Below, one piece after another: positions 1 to 7,146 of a DNA stretch of 7,146 nt. The notes beneath the pieces were generated by a model. It was given only the letters and a program-made list of their open reading frames with translations. It had not been told where the DNA came from and made no database searches. This DNA comes from a virus (Duplodnaviria; Heunggongvirae; Uroviricota; Caudoviricetes). Positions within the stretch are counted from its first letter, which is position 1. Every line of letters begins with the position of its first letter. The translations under genes and the position numbers were made by a program. The stretch is taken from positions 1-7,146 of IMG/VR virus record IMGVR_UViG_2667528065_000010; one strand, 5' to 3'.

Positions 1-216
1 CACAACATCCGAGGGCGGAGGCATCGTCCGCTGGCCCACAGAAGTCCGGAAAGTCATGGAAGGTCGTTGTTGGGAGGAGGTACAAATTCTCTCATGCAAA
101 AAATACGTAAAATCGATAATAGCTGGAAATAATTCAATACATGCACTCTCGAAAGTGCATCAGCCAACAAGCAGAACGTTATTGCATACAACGTTTCTGC
201 GGCATAATCCCAATGA

Positions 217-340
217 TTACTCCCTGACAGGGTTCGTAGGCCACTCAATATCAGGTGCAGTTGATGTATCAACACGGTTCAGCAGCATCCGATACTTTTT
301 CCAGGCTTCCAGCAACGGGGTTTCTTCCTCCGTTGCATAT
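217..340 (-). pseudogene. tfa: 3' remnant of a tail fibre assembly gene (Tfa family C-terminus), lacking start and N-terminal domain
   Basis: Minus-strand translation of 340..220 is [39 protein letters not shown], then TAA at 219-217. This matches the C-terminal motif of E. coli prophage Tfa proteins as I recall it (…[26 protein letters not shown]…). An in-frame TGA lies at 343-341, there is no ATG upstream of the motif, and the preceding sequence is an unrelated membrane-protein ORF. Confidence 0.65.
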
Positions 341-355
341 ACAGCTCACCTTTTT

Positions 356-655
356 TCACCCACGATTAACCAACAGCCAGACCAGCAGACACGCCACCAC
401 CGGCACAGCAAAATCCATCAGGCTTGCCACATCCCATGCACGTGTATCAAAACCGCCCCACCACGGCATATTCATTCGCTTGCCATGCCCGAACATTTCG
501 ATCCAGCGATATTCTGCCTGGGTGTGTTCACGCGCAATGAAGAACGTACAACCGGCTATCGCCCCGTAAGCCCAGTTCCCGGTAAAAAGACCAATCAGTA
601 GCTGCGCAGCCACAGCACAAAGCGCATGAAGGAAAGGTGTTATATCCATTTTCAT
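356..655 (-). CDS. Hypothetical small membrane protein (~100 aa, 2-3 predicted TM segments)
   Basis: ORF 356..664 in the track begins at a TTG; the likely real start is ATG at 655 (MKMDITPF…) or 649. Hydrophobic stretches ITPFLHALCAVAAQLLIGLF and FAVPVVACLLVWLLV. Codon usage resembles the neighbouring genes. No family recognised. Confidence 0.5.
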   Translation of the reverse strand: MKMDITPFLHALCAVAAQLLIGLFTGNWAYGAIAGCTFFIAREHTQAEYRWIEMFGHGKRMNMPWWGGFDTRAWDVASLMDFAVPVVACLLVWLLVNRG

Positions 656-662
656 CCTACCC

Positions 663-685
663 AATAAAACGGGGCGCTCGGCCCC
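663..685 (-). terminator. Candidate rho-independent terminator after the chaperone-domain fibre gene
   Basis: Minus-strand ggggc-cgagc-gcccc (5-bp GC stem) followed by gttttatt, directly after the TAA at 692-694. The stem is short, so confidence is modest. Confidence 0.4.
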
Positions 686-691
686 TTAATA

Positions 692-1736
692 TTATTTAGA
701 CGCAAGCGCCGCCTCAATTGCAGATAATCTTTGTCTTAATTCTGCGTTTTCTTCTTCCAGTGCTGTTATTCTGTCGTCTGACTCTCTGGCTACCTGAACA
801 AGCAAGCCAGTAACACCAGAATAATCTACTGTGTAATAACGTTCACCTTCTTCACCTTCCGATCCGCTCGCACCGTCCTGATATTTCATTGCGGAACCTA
901 CAACTTCTGGGATTGCTTCCAGAGCTTCCTGTGCAATGACACCAGCATAGGGCATACCGTTTTCTTTAAGCGTGTATGTATAGCCGTTCATTTTACGGAT
1001 GCGGTCGGTTGCATTATCGATCACCTGAATGTTGTCTTTCAGATCCCGGTCGGAATGCTGGTTAAATGCGGTGGCATGACATGCACCATTAACGCTTAAC
1101 ATATAGGTGTTATCGGTATTTTTCTGCGCATAGAACATATAAGCGCCACAAGTCACGACACCGACTTCATAAACAACAGGACGGCTGGAGTTGCCCCACA
1201 ATTGAGCGAGTAACACCAGCATAAGCGGTTCCCTGTGTGTTTAATGTCATGGTTGACCCATGATTGGCATATTTGATCTGTAATGTGTCGGTGTAATCAA
1301 ATTTAATAAGCGCGTTACTTCCACGCTTGCTGTATGACATAAGGCAGTTACCCATTTTGAGGTATCCGCTGTCACCGGGAAAAATCATCGTACCGCCATA
1401 AAGGTTGGTAAAGTCCCAGCAAATGTTTGTCCCGTTATCGTTCAGGTTAAGGCGCGCCATTGCGTTACCTGGACTGTCTATCCATTTTTTGAGGTATAGT
1501 TCGCAATACGCATCCTCAACACCTGCCGTCCTGTGAGTTGAGCGGAGTTTTCTCCCAAATATAGCTCCGCTAGTTGGCAATACCTGCTGATACCATGAAG
1601 CAGACCAGTCACCAACGATTTCATCTTTGCTGTCTACATATAATTTTGTTGCGTAGCTTCCTTGATCGTTTTTTAATTTGCTAACGTCGGATTTTAGCGT
1701 TTTGATGTCATCAGGAATTACTGTCGATGTAGCCAT
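692..1736 (-). pseudogene. Short tail-fibre/tip protein with C-terminal intramolecular-chaperone (peptidase S74-like) domain, interrupted by a frameshift
   Basis: Two overlapping minus ORFs in different frames (1167..1736 and 692..1222). The upstream part begins at ATG 1736 with AGGAAG as RBS. The downstream part carries HSDRDLKDNIQVI…GYTYTLKENG…GVIAQEALEAIPEVV…ALEEENAELRQRLSAIEAALASK. The SDxxxKxNI motif followed by a C-terminal coiled coil is, as I recall it, the signature of the self-cleaving chaperone domain of phage tail fibres and endosialidases. Removing one G from the minus-strand G4 run (plus C4 at 1194-1197) gives a continuous ~347-aa protein (…GVTRSIVG-NSSRPVVYEV…). Confidence 0.6.
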
Positions 1737-1745
1737 TTTTCTTCC

Positions 1746-2027
1746 TCACATCCAGCCACGAAGTTGATGCTCAACAGCAACCACGTATTCATCGAATAAT
1801 GACGATATTTGCGAATCATTAATGATGCGCACGTTTACAAAATATCCGTCTTCCTTAACACATACCGGTTCGCCATCTTCAGTCAGTTCTCCGGTTTCTT
1901 TGTACACGTTACCTATCACGTCGATAAGAATATCATCCTGCATCGACTCGTCATCATAATAGCCAATACTCTCCATAAAGGCCGAAAAGTCGGCCCTGTC
2001 TTCAAATTTGAGTGTTAAATCTTTCAT
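1746..2027 (-). CDS. Hypothetical acidic 93-aa protein of unknown function
   Basis: ATG at 2027 with a strong SD (GGGGGAG, plus 2036-2042) 8 nt upstream. It starts 23 nt after the stf stop, and its TGA sits 9 nt before the next gene's ATG, so it is translationally coupled on both sides. Rich in Asp/Glu. I recognise no family. Confidence 0.65.
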   Translation of the reverse strand: MKDLTLKFEDRADFSAFMESIGYYDDESMQDDILIDVIGNVYKETGELTEDGEPVCVKEDGYFVNVRIINDSQISSLFDEYVVAVEHQLRGWM

Positions 2028-2050
2028 TAGATTGACTCCCCCATTTGTGC

Positions 2051-4456
2051 CTAAGTTAATTCTTTATGCCAAATGCGTAAATTTTTCACATGACCGAACA
2101 GGTGTCTGTTGCCACTGGATGATTGTCCACCGATATTAATATTACCGGCAGTATAACGTTGCAATGTATGCAGAGACGGGGAGCTGCCACCTAAAATTCC
2201 ATCAACAACAACCTGCAACTGTTTATCTTCTGTAAACTTAAAGCCAGTAACAAATTTCCTTTTCTCTCTATTCCCATATGCTTTATATTCTGTTTTTGTT
2301 CCTTTGCCATTGGTGATAATTAGCCTTTTACCACGAGTGGTAAAACCAAAATACATATAACTTTCATCAGAAACTTCAGTCGTCGCCCCTGTAATTGAGA
2401 TATTAAGCAAACGCGCAGAGCCTTCTAAATTAGGCATTTCAGAATCCCAATTAACATTAACTTCCATGAGAACACTAACTGGTGGAGTTGCCCAATTGAA
2501 AGGTATAGGTATGATTACCTGGTCACTTGCTCTCGTGGCACCGACCTCTGTTGTGATGATAAAAGATGACGCGTTTAGTCCCTTTTCGAATTGAGGGGTT
2601 GTTAACATTAATTTATCGCCAGACTTGATTGATCGTTGATGTGCTCCAAACTCAAAACGCCCATACATATTTTTTGCTTCTGGTGATTTGTAGGTAAACT
2701 CAACACGAATCCATCCATTAGACTCTCTGAATATGTTATAAGTTGCCGCCTCACCTCCAGAATAACTCAACATATCGCCAGTCTCGCAATCAATATATGC
2801 GCCAGCGGTCAGTGTGTTACTTGAGCCATCGTCGTTAACATATGATATTCTTGGACGCAACGTGATAATACCATCCCCACTTACTTTTTTAACTCTGCAG
2901 GATAAAGTAACTGATTCATTTGCCGAAACTGAAATAACCCTGGTATATCCAGTAGAAATTAATGTCGCCCTTTCAGTTGTGGATGTTTCTTTAACGCCAA
3001 ACAAACCATAACTGAAACCATACTCATCAACTCCCGTGGTAATAGTTAAGTTAGCAGTGTCATAGTTCCACGATACTGGTGTATTCGTATAAGAAAAAGT
3101 ATTCGTTCTCTGACCTTCAATGAGCAGACCATCTTTTTCAAAACGTGGTTCATTTATCGCTGATTCAGCAAAACACCCAGACTTATCTATATACGTTGCA
3201 GTTGACGCCCTGGTAAATGAAACAACCTTTTCAGACGGCAATGCAATAACATCGTCACCAACTGTGATGCTCTTATATCCAGGAGCAAACCCGGTAATCA
3301 TATCCAGTGAATCGTTAAACGGTATCCACACCTCAGGTAACGGCTGTAAGACATATTTATACGGCTCCGCAGCCTGGCTGGCGTACTCTCTGGCTGCATC
3401 TTCGCTTGCTTTAGCTGCCGTCTGGCTTGCTGCCGATGCTTTCGCTGAGTTCGCAGCCGCTGTTTCGCTCGCCTTTGCGTTGGTTTCACTGGTTTTTGCT
3501 GCTTTTTGAGCGGTTAGCTGATGCAGTGGCAGAAGCAGCCGCCGCACTTGCAGAACCAGCTGCAGCACTCTCGCTTTCGGCTGCTGCAGCCTGACTACTT
3601 TTCGCCGCAGTTTCGCTGGCTTTGGCATTCGTTTCGCTGGTCTTCGCTGCTGTCTGGCTGGACTTTGCGTTAGTTTCACTCGTCTTCGCAGCTTTCTGGC
3701 TGTTAGCCGCAGCAGTTGCTGATCCGGCTGCTGAAGTCGCAGAACCGGCCGCCGCACTCTCGCTTTCAGCTGCTGCATCCTGACTGCTTTTCGCCGCAGT
3801 TTCACTGGCTTTCGCATTCGTTTCGCTGGTTTTCGCTGCCGTCTGGCTGGACTTCGCGTTGGTTTCGCTCGTCTTTGCGGCTGTCTCACTGTTTTTCGCG
3901 TTGGTTTCTGATTTTTTGGCTGCAGTCGCGGGGAGGGGGCCGATGCAGTCTGTGAGGCCGCTGCCGCCTGTGCGCTGTTAGCTGCGTTCGTTTCTGAGGT
4001 TTTCGCCGCGTTCTTCGATGATGCCGCTGCTGTTTCGGATTTCTTTGCCGCCGCTGCGCTCTGAGAGGCGGCTTCAGCGTTGCGTGCCGCTTCTTCCACC
4101 ATTTCCTCAAAACGACGCAATGCCTCCGGCATGACATCATCTTCCGTCATGGCACCGAGAAAATCATTCAGCGTCCCCGGCTTAGAATCTTCATACACGG
4201 TGATGGTCCCGGCATGTGAAGGCGGAAAACCTTCAACCAGCAGGATAACGCTGTACTGGCCATACTCAACATCCATGCTGTAACGCCCGGCTTCATCCGG
4301 ATCTTCAGAGGCCACCGTGTTCACCAGATTTTCAGAGGCCACCGTGTTCACCAGTACCGTGGTGCTGTTACGCTTTGCCTTCAGTTGAATAGTGCAGTTC
4401 TGTATTGGTTTTCCCGCACCATCTTTCAGCACACCTGAGATTTTTACTGCTGCCAT
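2051..4456 (-). CDS. stf: Side tail fibre protein: lambda Stf-like N-terminus, Ala/Ser/Thr-rich repeat shaft, non-lambda C-terminal domain (possibly lectin/LamG-like)
   Basis: Likely start is ATG at 4456-4454 (MAAVKISGVLKDG…), with GGAG 5 nt upstream; the ORF-track start at 4462 is a GTG two codons further up. The N-terminal ~170 aa closely match my recollection of lambda Stf (MAVKISGVLKDG…NCTIQLKA…EAGRYSMDVEYGQYSVIL…FPPSHAGTITVYEDS…). The middle has AAKTSETNAKA-type repeats. The C-terminal ~480 aa are beta-rich and end …RHLFGHVKNLRIWHKELT. The ORF is continuous, but about 140 internal codons are in an alternative frame (see findings). Confidence 0.82.
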   Translation of the reverse strand: MAAVKISGVLKDGAGKPIQNCTIQLKAKRNSTTVLVNTVASENLVNTVASEDPDEAGRYSMDVEYGQYSVILLVEGFPPSHAGTITVYEDSKPGTLNDFLGAMTEDDVMPEALRRFEEMVEEAARNAEAASQSAAAAKKSETAAASSKNAAKTSETNAANSAQAAAASQTASAPSPRLQPKNQKPTRKTVRQPQRRAKPTRSPARRQRKPAKRMRKPVKLRRKAVRMQQLKARVRRPVLRLQQPDQQLLRLTARKLRRRVKLTQSPARQQRRPAKRMPKPAKLRRKVVRLQQPKARVLQLVLQVRRLLLPLHQLTAQKAAKTSETNAKASETAAANSAKASAASQTAAKASEDAAREYASQAAEPYKYVLQPLPEVWIPFNDSLDMITGFAPGYKSITVGDDVIALPSEKVVSFTRASTATYIDKSGCFAESAINEPRFEKDGLLIEGQRTNTFSYTNTPVSWNYDTANLTITTGVDEYGFSYGLFGVKETSTTERATLISTGYTRVISVSANESVTLSCRVKKVSGDGIITLRPRISYVNDDGSSNTLTAGAYIDCETGDMLSYSGGEAATYNIFRESNGWIRVEFTYKSPEAKNMYGRFEFGAHQRSIKSGDKLMLTTPQFEKGLNASSFIITTEVGATRASDQVIIPIPFNWATPPVSVLMEVNVNWDSEMPNLEGSARLLNISITGATTEVSDESYMYFGFTTRGKRLIITNGKGTKTEYKAYGNREKRKFVTGFKFTEDKQLQVVVDGILGGSSPSLHTLQRYTAGNINIGGQSSSGNRHLFGHVKNLRIWHKELT
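3474..3930 (-). repeat. 189-bp-period tandem repeats (about 2.4 copies, ~90% identical) encoding the Ala/Ser/Thr-rich fibre shaft
   Basis: Plus-strand landmarks recur at a 189-nt offset: gcagaacc at 3550 and 3739; gttagc at 3513 and 3702. One sub-segment shows a 190-nt offset (tttgcgtt at 3474 and 3664), which reveals a 1-nt indel between copies. Confidence 0.85.
4301..4354 (-). repeat. 27-bp tandem duplication (26/27 identical) inside the stf N-terminal domain, in frame
   Basis: 4301-4327 versus 4328-4354 differ at one base. It encodes LVNTVASEN-LVNTVASED, whereas lambda Stf as I recall it has a single VNTVGSE at this point. Confidence 0.85.
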
Positions 4457-4466
4457 ATCCACTCCA

Positions 4467-4494
4467 CAAAAAAGCCCGCCTGAACCGGCGGGCT
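4467..4494 (-). terminator. Rho-independent terminator downstream of lom
   Basis: Minus-strand agcccgcc-ggttca-ggcgggct (8-bp GC-rich stem; plus 4473-4494) followed by tttttt (plus A-run 4467-4472). It sits just upstream of the stf RBS (GGAG) and start codon. Confidence 0.65.
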
Positions 4495-4520
4495 GTCATA
4501 ACACTGTGTTACCTGGCTAA

Positions 4521-5144
4521 TCAGAACTTATAACCGACACCCACGATGAAACCGTCAGTGCGCCAGTCACCACTGCCGGAGCCTTCATAAGCAATATCAA
4601 TGGCCACGGATTCGGTCGGGTTAAACTGCACGCCAGCTCCCCACGCCAGAGACGTGTTGCTGTGGCGACCGTCATCACTTCCGGTCAGCACATCGTGCGT
4701 TTTCCCCTTGTTGTCAGTTACGCGGAGGTAATCCCCGGAAAAAGTCGAAACACGGCTGTAAGCCATACCCGAAACACGGCTGTAAGCCATACCCGCCATC
4801 GCATACGCGCTGAACCATTCATTCACGCGCACAGACGGCCCCGCCATCACGCTGAACCAGCGGTTACGCACGGAATCTTTATGCCAGCGGGTATCGCTGT
4901 AACGGGTCAGCTGACGATTCTTGTATCCTGCATAACTGAATGACGTCACCAGCCCCAGCGTGTCCGTAAATTCATAACGGTATTTCACGTTAATGCCCTT
5001 CAGGTCATCACTGCCTGGCATATCAGTATGGGTCTGAAGATACCCGGCGCTTAGTGTGGACTGATGCTCTGCTGCGCTCGCTGGCGTACCAGCGGCAACC
5101 AGCCAGACTACTGCGGACAGAATAACAGCACATAATTTACGCAT
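4521..5144 (-). CDS. lom: Lom family outer-membrane protein (Ail/OmpX/PagC-like 8-strand beta-barrel), 207 aa
   Basis: ATG at 5144 preceded by GAGAGG. N-terminal signal peptide MRKLCAVILSAVVWLVAAGTPASA-AE. C-terminus …VAIDIAYEGSGSGDWRTDGFIVGVGYKF, as I recall for lambda Lom, ending in the aromatic residue typical of OM beta-barrels. Position immediately after J as in lambda. Confidence 0.92.
   Translation of the reverse strand: MRKLCAVILSAVVWLVAAGTPASAAEHQSTLSAGYLQTHTDMPGSDDLKGINVKYRYEFTDTLGLVTSFSYAGYKNRQLTRYSDTRWHKDSVRNRWFSVMAGPSVRVNEWFSAYAMAGMAYSRVSGMAYSRVSTFSGDYLRVTDNKGKTHDVLTGSDDGRHSNTSLAWGAGVQFNPTESVAIDIAYEGSGSGDWRTDGFIVGVGYKF
4747..4794 (-). repeat. Perfect 24-bp tandem duplication (2 x gaaacacggctgtaagccataccc) inside lom, in frame
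   Basis: Read directly: 4747-4770 is identical to 4771-4794. It duplicates eight residues (…MAGMAYSRVSGMAYSRVSTFSG…). Confidence 0.9.
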
Positions 5145-5165
5145 AATTACCTCTCGCTTTTCTGC

Positions 5166-5192
5166 AATAAAAAAGGCGTCATTTCTGACGCC
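5166..5192 (-). terminator. Rho-independent terminator downstream of J
   Basis: Minus-strand sequence ggcgtca-gaaa-tgacgcc (7-bp perfect stem, 4-nt loop; plus 5175-5192) followed directly by tttttatt (plus A-run 5166-5174). It lies between the J stop (5212) and the lom RBS. Confidence 0.6.
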
Positions 5193-5211
5193 CGTATTGG
5201 GGTTATAAAAT

Positions 5212-7146
5212 TCAGCTGATACTGATGCCTGCAGTGGCTTTCTTCATCACAACAACCAGCAAATCGCTGATACTTGCTGTGGGATACCAACCATTTACCC
5301 ACCATGCTGATACAGAAAACTCCAGTGTCATTACACCACTGCCTGCAGGCATATCAATAACACCCGTGTAAATCAGAGTATTATCCAGAGCCGTTCGGTT
5401 ATAAATTTCAGCCCCGTTTTTCTTCACTATCAGGCGGCATGACGAATAAGTATCGCTATTCTCCCGCTCATGTCTGGCACCGCAGAAAGCCACCGCTGGA
5501 ATAACAATTTGCCGGTCAAACGACTGATCGTCATAAACCCTGACGGTAATAGTCCCTGATGGCCACCGCTCCGGTGCACGGGAGTCCCGGGGGAAAGCTT
5601 TGCCCACTGTTTTAACGAGATCGCCTTCAATCTGGTTCGCGGACAGTTTTCCCAGAACCCGACAGTTCTCGTTAATCGTGACATTATTGAGCGTCCCGGA
5701 GTTCGCATTCACGTTACCGCTGATATCGGCATTTTTCGCCGTCAGCCGCCCGTCCGGTGTCAGGGAAAATACCGGAGGATTGCCGCCACTGGTAATGGTG
5801 GGAGCCGTCAGATACTTCAGGAACACTTCGTTCATGAATATCTGGTTGCCCTGCGCCACAAACATCGGCGTTTCATTCCCGTTTGCCGGGTCAATAAACG
5901 CGATACGGTTAGCGGCAACCAGGAACTGGCTCAGTTTGCCTTCCTCCGTATCCTCCATACTAAGGCCAAGCCCCGCGACATAATGCCTGCCGTCTTCGGT
6001 CTGCTCAATTTTGACGCCCCACATGGCATTCCATTTATCGTTGGCGTCCTTCCACTCTTTCGAAAACTCCTCCAGTTTGCTGGCGTTATCCTCCTCCAGT
6101 TTGCTGGCGTTATCCTCCGTCAGCTCGACTTTTTCCAGCAGCTCCTTGCCGAGATGGGATTCGGTTATCTGGCCTTTGAAAAAATCCAGGTAACCTTCCG
6201 CATCATCGCTCGGCTGACCAACAGCCTCCACGAATGCCGATTTGCCAACGGTGTTCACACTGCGGATATAAAAGTAATAATCATGGCCCGGTTTGATATT
6301 GATACTGGCAGCTATCCAGTACAGCGCCGTACCAAGATAGCGGGCTGTGGTCTCAACCTGCCTGATATCGGTAATCCGCTTTTCCGAGAACCAGAACTCA
6401 AACTGTACCGTCGGATCATAAACCGCAAGATGCGGCGTGGCAGTTATCTGAAAATAGCCCGGCGTCAGCTCAATCCGCGACGGCGCTGCCGGTGCGGCAA
6501 TCCGGAACGATACCGATGCCGGATCGCCCTGCTGTCCCCACGCATTTACCGCCCGGACCGTCAGCGTGTAACGCCCCAGCGCCAGTTGCCTGAAGCGGTA
6601 TGTGGTTTCCGTCGTCCTGGCCGTGCTGACCAGCCGCTCACTGCCGTCATCCGCTGCCACGGTCAGGCGAAGCATAAAGCTCACCCCCTTCACCACCTTC
6701 GGCGTATCCCAGCGCGCCAGCACCTGATACTCCCCGCTGTCTGAGGTGACTTCGGCAGTCAGGTGCTGCACCGCAGGCGGCGTGACACCATTCACCGTGC
6801 CGCTCTGGTCGCCGTCAAAGTGCGCCCCGTTATCCACGATGGCCTCTTTTTCCGGCACATGCTGCACGGCGGTGATGGCATACGTGCCGTCGTCGTTCTC
6901 ACGGATACTCACGCAGCGGAACAGGCGCTGGCGCAGCGTCGGCAGCTTCAGCCCCCATACGCTGTATTCAGCAACACCGTCAGGAACACGGCTCACTTTT
7001 ACCTTCACGCCGTCGGTGACGGACTGAACCTCCACGCTGACCGGATTGCCACTTCCGTCAACCAGACTTATCAGCGTGGTACCGGAGGATGGCAGCGTGA
7101 TTTCACGGTCGAGCGTCAGCGTCCGGGTCTGGCTGTTCACCGCCAG
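5212..7146 (-). CDS. J: Host specificity / tail tip fibre protein J, C-terminal ~644 codons; 5' end lies beyond the right window edge
   Basis: Minus-strand frame is open from the window edge to the TGA at 5212-5214. The ORF-track start at 7140 is only an internal GTG. Translation contains fibronectin-III-like segments ([27 protein letters not shown]) and ends ...[32 protein letters not shown], matching my recollection of the lambda J C-terminus (receptor-binding region). Gene order J-lom-stf agrees with lambda. Confidence 0.93.
6067..6114 (-). repeat. Perfect 24-bp tandem duplication (2 x ctcctccagtttgctggcgttatc) inside J, in frame
   Basis: Read directly: 6067-6090 is identical to 6091-6114. 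In the J frame it duplicates eight residues (…[24 protein letters not shown]…). Confidence 0.9.

Follow-up and report, generated by a model that had tools for sequence, protein, structure and literature searches.

A conserved small gene that accompanies phage receptor-binding cassettes takes the place of tfa and is predicted to encode a three-helix membrane protein

The window analysed here is a stretch of 7,146 nucleotides (nt) from a virus of the Caudoviricetes (IMG/VR virus record IMGVR_UViG_2667528065_000010, positions 1 to 7,146). On its minus strand, between a tail-fibre gene and what is left of a tfa gene, it carries ORF97, a gene that encodes 97 amino acids (aa). An initial annotation had described ORF97 as a small membrane protein in the place of tfa, and our analysis supports that description. 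ORF97 is a real, strongly conserved phage gene under selection, already catalogued (as PHROG 1443 and WP_000355602.1) yet uncharacterised, and comparison across phages shows that it travels as the last cistron of receptor-binding protein (RBP) cassettes, linked to no RBP type, morphotype or downstream module.

The ORF97 locus

The features immediately around ORF97 are the following, in the order in which the minus strand is read.

685-664, minus strand: terminator-like element, a 5-base-pair (bp) all-GC stem with a 5-nt loop (685-671), then GTTTTATT
658-655, minus strand: Shine–Dalgarno sequence AGGA, 5 nt 5′ of ATG 649; a ribosome-binding site is annotated at the equivalent position in phage 21
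649..356, minus strand: ORF97 (97 aa), predicted three-helix inner-membrane protein; PHROG 1443; identical to WP_000355602.1
355..337, minus strand: spacer with the right-hand cassette junction; contains TGA 348-346
336..217, minus strand: Tfa C-terminal remnant, 39 codons plus stop, in a frame other than that of ORF97
171..200, minus strand: hairpin GCAGAAACGTT ... AACGTTCTGC followed by TTGTTGG; predicted folding free energy (ΔG) −19.2 kcal/mol, z −2.2

ORF97 is a genuine minus-strand reading frame that ends at the TGA at 358-356, as first annotated. Among its in-frame start candidates (TTG 664, ATG 655 and ATG 649), homologues and public annotation point to ATG 649, which would give a 97-aa protein with the N terminus MDITPF: this is the annotated start in Escherichia coli genomes that are 100% identical to the locus and in phage 21, and homologues in other genera start at the same Met-Asp. 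In the identical genomes, the protein is the same as that of the annotated coding sequence WP_000355602.1.

The terminator-like hairpin reported directly 5′ of ORF97 is present (685-671, followed by a run of T), with a folding energy that is ordinary (ΔG −11.7 kcal/mol; z −0.85 against shuffled sequences), and the Shine–Dalgarno sequence of ORF97 follows it at once, with no room between. The arrangement in phage 21 is without this hairpin. Because the hairpin lies, together with a tail-fibre gene whose product has a C-terminal Peptidase_S74 domain (the S74 fibre gene), between an upstream 93-aa gene and ORF97, and is absent in phage 21, we assign it to the inserted fibre unit and not to ORF97. 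A promoter, which the initial annotation had proposed to look for, was not found: our scan of the window yielded no sigma-70-like site reaching threshold in front of ORF97. Given that no promoter-like site precedes the gene, anti-terminated late read-through of the hairpin would be the simplest route to its expression. By eye, a sigma-70-like match (TTGAGG-17-TAATAT, 717-689, minus strand, 8/12) can be picked out below the scan threshold and at chance level; it overlaps the 3′ end of the fibre gene and the GC hairpin, and a transcript from it would start inside the 5′ arm of the hairpin and would thus escape termination. The hairpin at 171-200 lies within DNA homologous to the region 3′ of lambda tfa and is possibly the end of the late transcript.

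Reading frames and the cassette junction

The Tfa-like C terminus that had been noticed downstream of ORF97 is indeed there. It matches Pfam Caudo_TAP (PF02413) at positions 95-130 of 131 (E 2.4e-16), and the Prokaryotic Genome Annotation Pipeline records a tfa pseudogene, 'missing N-terminus', at the same coordinates in identical genomes. The two reading frames had been thought to be one, separated by two in-frame TGA codons, the second at 343-341. The letters at 343-341 are TGT, and the codon phases differ: the first letters of ORF97 codons fall at 358, 355 and every third position below (position mod 3 = 1), those of the remnant's codons at 336, 333 and onwards (position mod 3 = 0), one base apart. 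There is thus no common frame and no pair of in-frame stops, and the earlier observation was a miscount. The nearest TGA, at 348-346, is in the tfa frame and out of the ORF97 frame. Reading past the ORF97 stop in its own frame gives 28 residues that are not Tfa, and natural stop-loss variants (P0004) give the same extension. The earlier judgement that a read-through fusion is unlikely stands, on different grounds: the frame analysis refutes an ORF97–Tfa fusion, and the pair of in-frame stops on which that judgement had relied does not exist.

The notion that the arrangement marks a cassette junction also holds, although at coordinates and in a frame other than those first given. Intact tfa genes (lambda, HK630 and lambda imm21) are homologous to the window DNA from 337/336 onwards, past the tfa stop and to the end of the query at 200, which places the right cassette end 19 nt beyond the ORF97 stop. 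Phage 21 and many related prophages share homology with the window only from 650-658, at the Shine–Dalgarno sequence, downwards. These comparisons show that most of tfa, and distal stf, gave way to the cassette now in the window, which comprises the distal part of stf, the 93-aa gene, the S74 fibre gene and ORF97.

A partial match to the Rfam family IS009 (RF02111) was seen at 260-358 on the minus strand, with 62.8 bits against a gathering score of 117. The alignment covers only the unpaired 3′ ~70 nt of the model and coincides with the tfa coding sequence; we therefore rejected it as evidence of a small RNA (sRNA), as tfa-derived DNA with a sub-gathering score. The match suggests that the putative sRNA family IS009 is itself in part tfa-derived DNA.

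ORF97 is a widespread gene under purifying selection

Across 40 alleles, the ratio of non-synonymous to synonymous divergence (dN/dS) of ORF97 is about 0.10 (0.106; mean dN 0.013, mean dS 0.121). Among 80 complete copies in related loci, 79 have 97 codons and one has 95, and the frame is uninterrupted in every one (80/80). Together with distant homologues in a wide range of hosts, this purifying selection and the uninterrupted copies establish ORF97 as a genuine gene and rule out that it is the out-of-frame wreck of another, the finding that the initial annotation had named as fatal to its proposal. When persistence of ORF97 was compared with that of its neighbours in 85 E. coli-type prophage loci, no differential emerged, the neighbours being mostly intact too.

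Of 5426 complete E. coli genomes, 1900 contain matches to ORF97, at 3885 places in all, 57 of them on plasmids; a genome that has the gene carries a median of two copies and a maximum of seven. The family is also present in 73 phage records, including that of phage 21, which names its homologue a putative membrane protein. A single-sequence search against 1.8 billion cluster representatives retrieved 348 representatives (50% identity clusters, E<=1e-3), and a profile search retrieved 2107 clusters at 90% identity; the best 120 matches of a second profile search were close relatives only. Members are generally ~90-130 residues long and labelled hypothetical (one bears the UniRef name 'Ybl63'), and homologues extend to Aeromonas, Comamonas, Halomonas and alphaproteobacteria.

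Membership searches placed ORF97 squarely in PHROG 1443, a family of unknown function (E 2.8e-58, residues 1-96 on profile positions 1-96 of 97). Scans against Pfam-A, NCBIfam and PADLOC gave no match, and the PHROG matches were to unknown-function families only; the Pfam scan at E<=1 returned a sub-threshold PhoR match and no Caudo_TAP. Described superinfection-exclusion and defence families (Imm, SieB, Cor and others) showed no sequence membership in Pfam-A, NCBIfam, PADLOC or PHROGs; holin families gave no match in Pfam or PHROGs, nor did the GtrA or acyltransferase families in Pfam, and no gtrB- or gtrC-like neighbours were seen in the contexts examined. Comparison with solved or modelled fold families yielded no significant structural or sequence match. 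Literature searches on the family and protein names found no paper mentioning the ORF97 protein; a paper on the svsR sRNA of an NC-SV prophage concerns the cI region and has no bearing on it.

Predicted structure and topology

An AlphaFold2 model of ORF97 was built from a family alignment of 76 sequences, with pairwise identity to the query down to 30% (pLDDT, the predicted local distance difference test, 97.9; pTM, the predicted template modelling score, 0.84). The model has helices at 4-23, 26-53 and 74-96, so that where two or three hydrophobic helices had been claimed, model and alignment indicate three; the hydrophobic spans are short, at ~14-16 residues. Arg40, Glu41 and Trp72 are invariant in the alignment, and His8, Gln44, Ala45, Glu46, Arg58, Asp79 and Pro83 are conserved in at least 90% of sequences, giving a family consensus of GREHxQAEYRWI...G.R..MPWWGGFD.R.W...S.LD...P. 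In the model, a 40-residue head of aromatic and charged residues is built from the second half of helix 2, the loop that follows and the beginning of helix 3, and it shares its side of the membrane with the N terminus. The side holding the N-terminal tail and the head has a mean of 6.4 Lys+Arg against 0.5 on the opposite side, and the bias holds in 75 of the 76 sequences. By the positive-inside rule, the head would be cytoplasmic; on this model, it probably faces the cytoplasm, with almost nothing of the protein in the periplasm. The C-terminal tail of family members is short (mean 3 residues, with 0.47 Lys+Arg), and ORF97 is without a lipobox.

Two distant members (P0172, 140 aa, and P0254, 146 aa) carry a ~45-residue acidic soluble insertion in the head, between RWIE.FG and MPWWGGFD. 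These insertions indicate that the head tolerates an extra domain at that point, which is a possible site for the insertion of a reporter.

ORF97 homologues follow unrelated receptor-binding genes

The position of the gene was compared across phages and prophages of several kinds. For the lambda-like arrangement, the order in phage 21 is stf, a 92-aa gene and the ORF97 homologue, and prophage regions have J, a gene for a 555-aa fibre and ORFs of 49 and 81 aa before it; a Comamonas prophage has its homologue 3′ of a gene for a 2520-aa J-like protein and a 72-aa ORF. Among P2-like prophages of Aeromonas and Leclercia, the homologue takes the tfa position and directly adjoins, or overlaps, the tail-fibre stop; in phiHAP-1 (P2/HP1-like), the stop that it overlaps is that of a putative tail fibre assembly gene, and the sheath gene is next.

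P22-like phages hold the homologue in the slot that separates the tailspike gene from int. In JEP4, its start and the tailspike stop overlap, and int comes next. Phage Gally (locus L231, 2760-3288) has the tailspike gene, a strong terminator with a 9-bp stem, a 190-nt AT-rich spacer and then the homologue with its own Shine–Dalgarno sequence. In vB_EcoP-611R6 (locus L233, 1405-3288), the tailspike gene is followed by an OafA-type O-acetylase gene, a 38-aa fibre fragment and the homologue; the fragment directly before the ORF suggests that the ORF arrived there along with a fibre gene's 3′ end. Elsewhere, the 154-kb Cobetia phage Carin-5 has a homologue between tail-spike genes, and coliphage HC6 has an unannotated partial homologue after a gene for an 859-aa protein with an S74-like domain.

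A census of 80 diverse environmental viral-contig loci gave a consistent picture: a same-strand ORF lies directly upstream in 72, the gap is at most 15 nt in 58 and the upstream ORF encodes at least 300 aa in 53. For the two largest clusters of upstream proteins, the representatives have matches among the tail-spike or tail-protein PHROGs. Across 44 loci in species-representative genomes, a J-like protein is encoded 2-6 genes upstream in 12 and a Stf-N-like protein in 8. The gene is usually packed against a late RBP gene, its start in most contexts touching or overlapping the stop of that neighbour. The upstream fibres have no detectable mutual similarity, whereas the membrane protein is ~60% identical. 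A general tie to Peptidase_S74 fibres was considered and rejected, because an S74-like domain is present in no more than 15 of the 292 upstream proteins. Downstream neighbours vary and include integrase, sheath, lysis-cassette, head-scaffold and major head genes, or the end of the prophage; endolysin PHROGs are matched by 17 of 105 unique downstream proteins, and holin PHROGs by six. Two distant homologues sit on ~1 kb contigs that give no context.

Possible functions of ORF97

The reading we favour, tentatively and with less than even confidence, is that ORF97 is an accessory protein of the inner membrane that is produced alongside the RBP; its conserved interfacial head would act on a conserved host membrane process and leave the cell a poorer target or sink for phage. 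ORF97 in the window would be transcribed as the tail end of the late operon, through the hairpin, and would so be produced together with the RBP. Its target would be a conserved inner-membrane process and not a particular receptor, and the envelope of the producing or lysogenic cell would be what becomes less favourable to phage. Candidate routes are the damping of a lipid-carrier-dependent surface-glycan pathway, or a block to entry at the membrane.

Several points weigh against this proposal. The target pathway is guesswork, and our literature searches found neither experiments nor expression data on ORF97. The topology is a prediction of the positive-inside rule, and the phage 21 record gives two transmembrane domains (TMHMM; N-in, C-in) plus a SignalP signal peptide, a prediction that misfits a three-helix bundle; were the head periplasmic, the proposed mechanism would change. 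The linkage to RBP genes has exceptions: a partial homologue in the jumbo Aeromonas phage PS1 follows a putative DNA helicase/terminase gene instead, and stand-alone chromosomal homologues lie near ligA, pnp or a CFA-synthase-like gene in alphaproteobacteria and others, which indicates that the protein does not need a phage RBP. No conserved synteny was found among these chromosomal non-phage homologues, the neighbours being unrelated housekeeping genes. The Gally gene, finally, is an apparently autonomous unit behind a strong terminator, an arrangement that suits expression from the prophage.

That last point leads to the alternative that ORF97 is a prophage-expressed factor for superinfection exclusion or lysogenic conversion that blocks adsorption or DNA entry in the manner of Cor, SieA, Imm or HK97 gp15, which we consider unlikely. 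It would be in keeping with a gene that adjoins receptor-binding genes, as cor and llp do, with a predicted inner-membrane location, with the stand-alone chromosomal copies and with the P22-like slot between tailspike gene and int, which usually holds gtr or oac conversion genes and in which the 611R6 copy lies near the O-acetylase gene; the Gally copy, with its terminator, AT-rich spacer and Shine–Dalgarno sequence, points the same way. The window copy, by contrast, has no sigma-70-like site before it and a hairpin that gives way at once to the Shine–Dalgarno sequence, and most copies start at or within the stop of a late RBP gene. The copy number of 2-7 per E. coli genome implies that phages with the gene readily lysogenise cells that already have it. 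Moreover, characterised inner-membrane exclusion proteins are directed at the delivery proteins of their own phage type, whereas the ORF97 family is ~60% identical across sipho-, myo- and podoviruses, whose DNA-delivery machineries are unrelated, and PADLOC, Pfam and PHROGs connect it to no known exclusion family. A different proposal, which we think unlikely, casts the ORF97 family as a hitherto unrecognised, near-universal companion of RBP cassettes: a minimal three-helix membrane enzyme or inhibitor whose head would act at the cytoplasmic face on a conserved lipid-carrier or envelope-biogenesis step and strip away or alter the surface glycans of the producer. The head motif (Arg-Glu-His...Gln-Ala-Glu / Met-Pro-Trp-Trp-Gly-Gly-Phe-Asp) would act late in infection or in lysogens, glycan-binding progeny would not be lost on debris and rival phages would adsorb poorly. 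This would amount to a general strategy of anti-readsorption or receptor shutdown, independent of receptor type and phage morphotype.

A part in lysis, as holin, antiholin or regulator of lysis timing, strikes us as distinctly unlikely. Its ~100 aa, three predicted membrane helices, conserved polar residues in helix 1 (His8 and Gln16) and GxxxG-type motifs would suit such a protein, and many environmental contigs have a tail-spike gene on one side of it and a lysis cassette on the other, the genes often overlapping by 4 nt; endolysin PHROGs are matched downstream. Those adjoining cassettes, however, hold other small membrane proteins, and six downstream proteins match holin PHROGs; ORF97 matches no holin family in Pfam or PHROGs, has no charged C-terminal tail (0.5 Lys+Arg) and has a deeply conserved 40-residue head that is atypical of holins. 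The lambda-, P22- and P2-like contexts examined have no adjoining lysis gene, the ORF keeping its place by the RBP gene, and the window has no endolysin gene; phages of these three kinds have complete lysis cassettes elsewhere in their genomes. That ORF97 helps the RBP to mature or assemble, as a functional replacement for Tfa, is improbable. In the window, as in P2-like prophages of Aeromonas and Leclercia, the gene takes the tfa position; it is also translationally coupled to RBP genes and follows some fibres that end in a Peptidase_S74 domain. Against this, the protein is modelled as almost wholly membrane-embedded or interfacial, the upstream RBPs are unrelated to one another and seldom S74-like, the phiHAP-1 copy follows a putative tail fibre assembly gene rather than replacing it, and chromosomal homologues occur with no phage genes nearby. 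S74 fibres and P22-type tailspikes, furthermore, are known to fold with no separate chaperone. We give practically no credence to an ORF97–tfa product made by read-through or frameshifting, or to ORF97 as a non-functional by-product of the junction: the two reading frames are separated by only 19 nt and stop-loss variants occur, if rarely, but the frames differ, the extension in the ORF97 frame is unrelated to Tfa, ORF97 is under purifying selection and the gene is present without a tfa remnant in P22-like, P2-like and environmental phages.

Comparison with known systems

We regard ORF97 as an uncharacterised addition to the small accessory membrane proteins that are carried with receptor-binding cassettes. 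Cor (phi80, N15 and T1) and Llp (T5) are envelope proteins that are encoded beside receptor-binding genes and are believed to guard against superinfection and the loss of progeny on debris. ORF97 resembles them as a small envelope protein encoded next to an RBP gene in temperate and virulent phages alike. It differs in that Cor and Llp are outer-membrane lipoproteins directed at one receptor, FhuA, whereas ORF97 is predicted to lie in the inner membrane, has no lipobox and is conserved whatever the RBP; no sequence match connects them.

A second likeness is to T4 Imm, P22 SieA and HK97 gp15, which are also small inner-membrane phage proteins and take effect when infection reaches the membrane. 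The binding partner of Imm is the tape measure protein of T4, and escape mutations from SieA map to P22 ejection proteins (the gp16/gp20 conduit). Imm and SieA are specific to a phage type, whereas the ORF97 family spans sipho-, myo- and podoviruses and is adjacent to RBP genes; the conserved surface of ORF97 is nearly all on the predicted cytoplasmic side, and no likeness in sequence or fold to Imm, SieA or gp15 was found.

The seroconversion-type genes gtrABC, oac and D3 iap share with ORF97 homologues the slot between tailspike gene and int in P22-like phages, and GtrA is a small membrane protein that is conserved regardless of serotype. ORF97, by contrast with gtr and oac, comes without gtrB or gtrC partners or a family match, is too small for a transferase and is also found between tail-spike and lysis or head genes. 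Class I holins such as lambda S105 have the same ~100 residues, three helices and, as proposed for ORF97, late expression, and ORF97 homologues, too, are sometimes near endolysin genes; unlike these holins, ORF97 has no charged C-terminal tail and has a long conserved head between helices 2 and 3, and where a lysis cassette adjoins a homologue, that cassette has separate holins. With Tfa and other Caudo_TAP proteins, it shares the position 3′ of a fibre gene, but it is unrelated in sequence and predicted to be membrane-embedded; the 39-codon remnant is the only Tfa-like sequence at the locus.

About one-third of complete E. coli genomes carry this gene, often in several copies, and we found for it no Pfam family, structure or literature. 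Phages of Aeromonas, Halomonas and Cobetia have it too, as do prophage regions in Comamonas and Leclercia genomes, and across three tail morphotypes it keeps its fixed place after RBP genes that are themselves unrelated; conserved linkage of this sort is usually the sign of a functional partnership. With its high-confidence model and few invariant charged residues, the protein lends itself to testing. If control of surface glycans or of entry were confirmed, it would bear on prophage-mediated phage resistance and on the annotation of tail-fibre loci, and it would affect host-range engineering by the swapping of RBP cassettes, with which the gene would travel along.

Neighbouring genes and differences from the closest genome

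Upstream of ORF97, two further genes belong to the cassette.

1736..692, minus strand: tail-fibre gene with a C-terminal Peptidase_S74 intramolecular-chaperone domain; 346 aa in reference genomes; phrog_4563
2027..1746, minus strand: 93-aa gene between stf and the S74 fibre gene; phrog_1361; acidic product of unknown function, no Pfam match

In the window, insertions at 1208, 1156-1157 and 1152 split the S74 fibre gene into overlapping ORFs at 1736..1167 and 1222..692, which match phrog_4563 at 1-181 and 177-346. The break is unusual, since 31 of 34 related loci give a single full-length match. The counterpart of the phrog_1361 gene (92 aa in phage 21) lies directly 5′ of the ORF97 homologue in phage 21 and many prophages, and its product may be an assembly factor for this type of side-tail fibre. 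Rare database entries fuse the phrog_1361 protein with the ORF97 family (P0261, 194 aa).

Compared with the closest complete genome, NZ_CP098187.1, the window is 99.0% identical and has 86 extra bases, made up of tandem duplications and small insertions, the latter frameshifting stf and the S74 fibre gene; the ORF97 region is identical to the reference. Three in-frame tandem duplications are absent from NZ_CP098187.1: 24 nt in J at 6095-6118 (EDNASKLE), 24 nt in lom at 4772-4795 (GMAYSRVS) and 27 nt in stf at 4303-4329 (LVNTVASE). They may equally be real or artefacts of assembly. Small insertions relative to the reference lie at 3932-3933, 3510, 1208, 1156-1157, 1152, 170 and 19-21, and those in stf result in a frameshifted, Lys/Arg/Pro-rich middle of its 803-aa ORF. 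At the other end, sitD starts just past window position 1, on the opposite strand.

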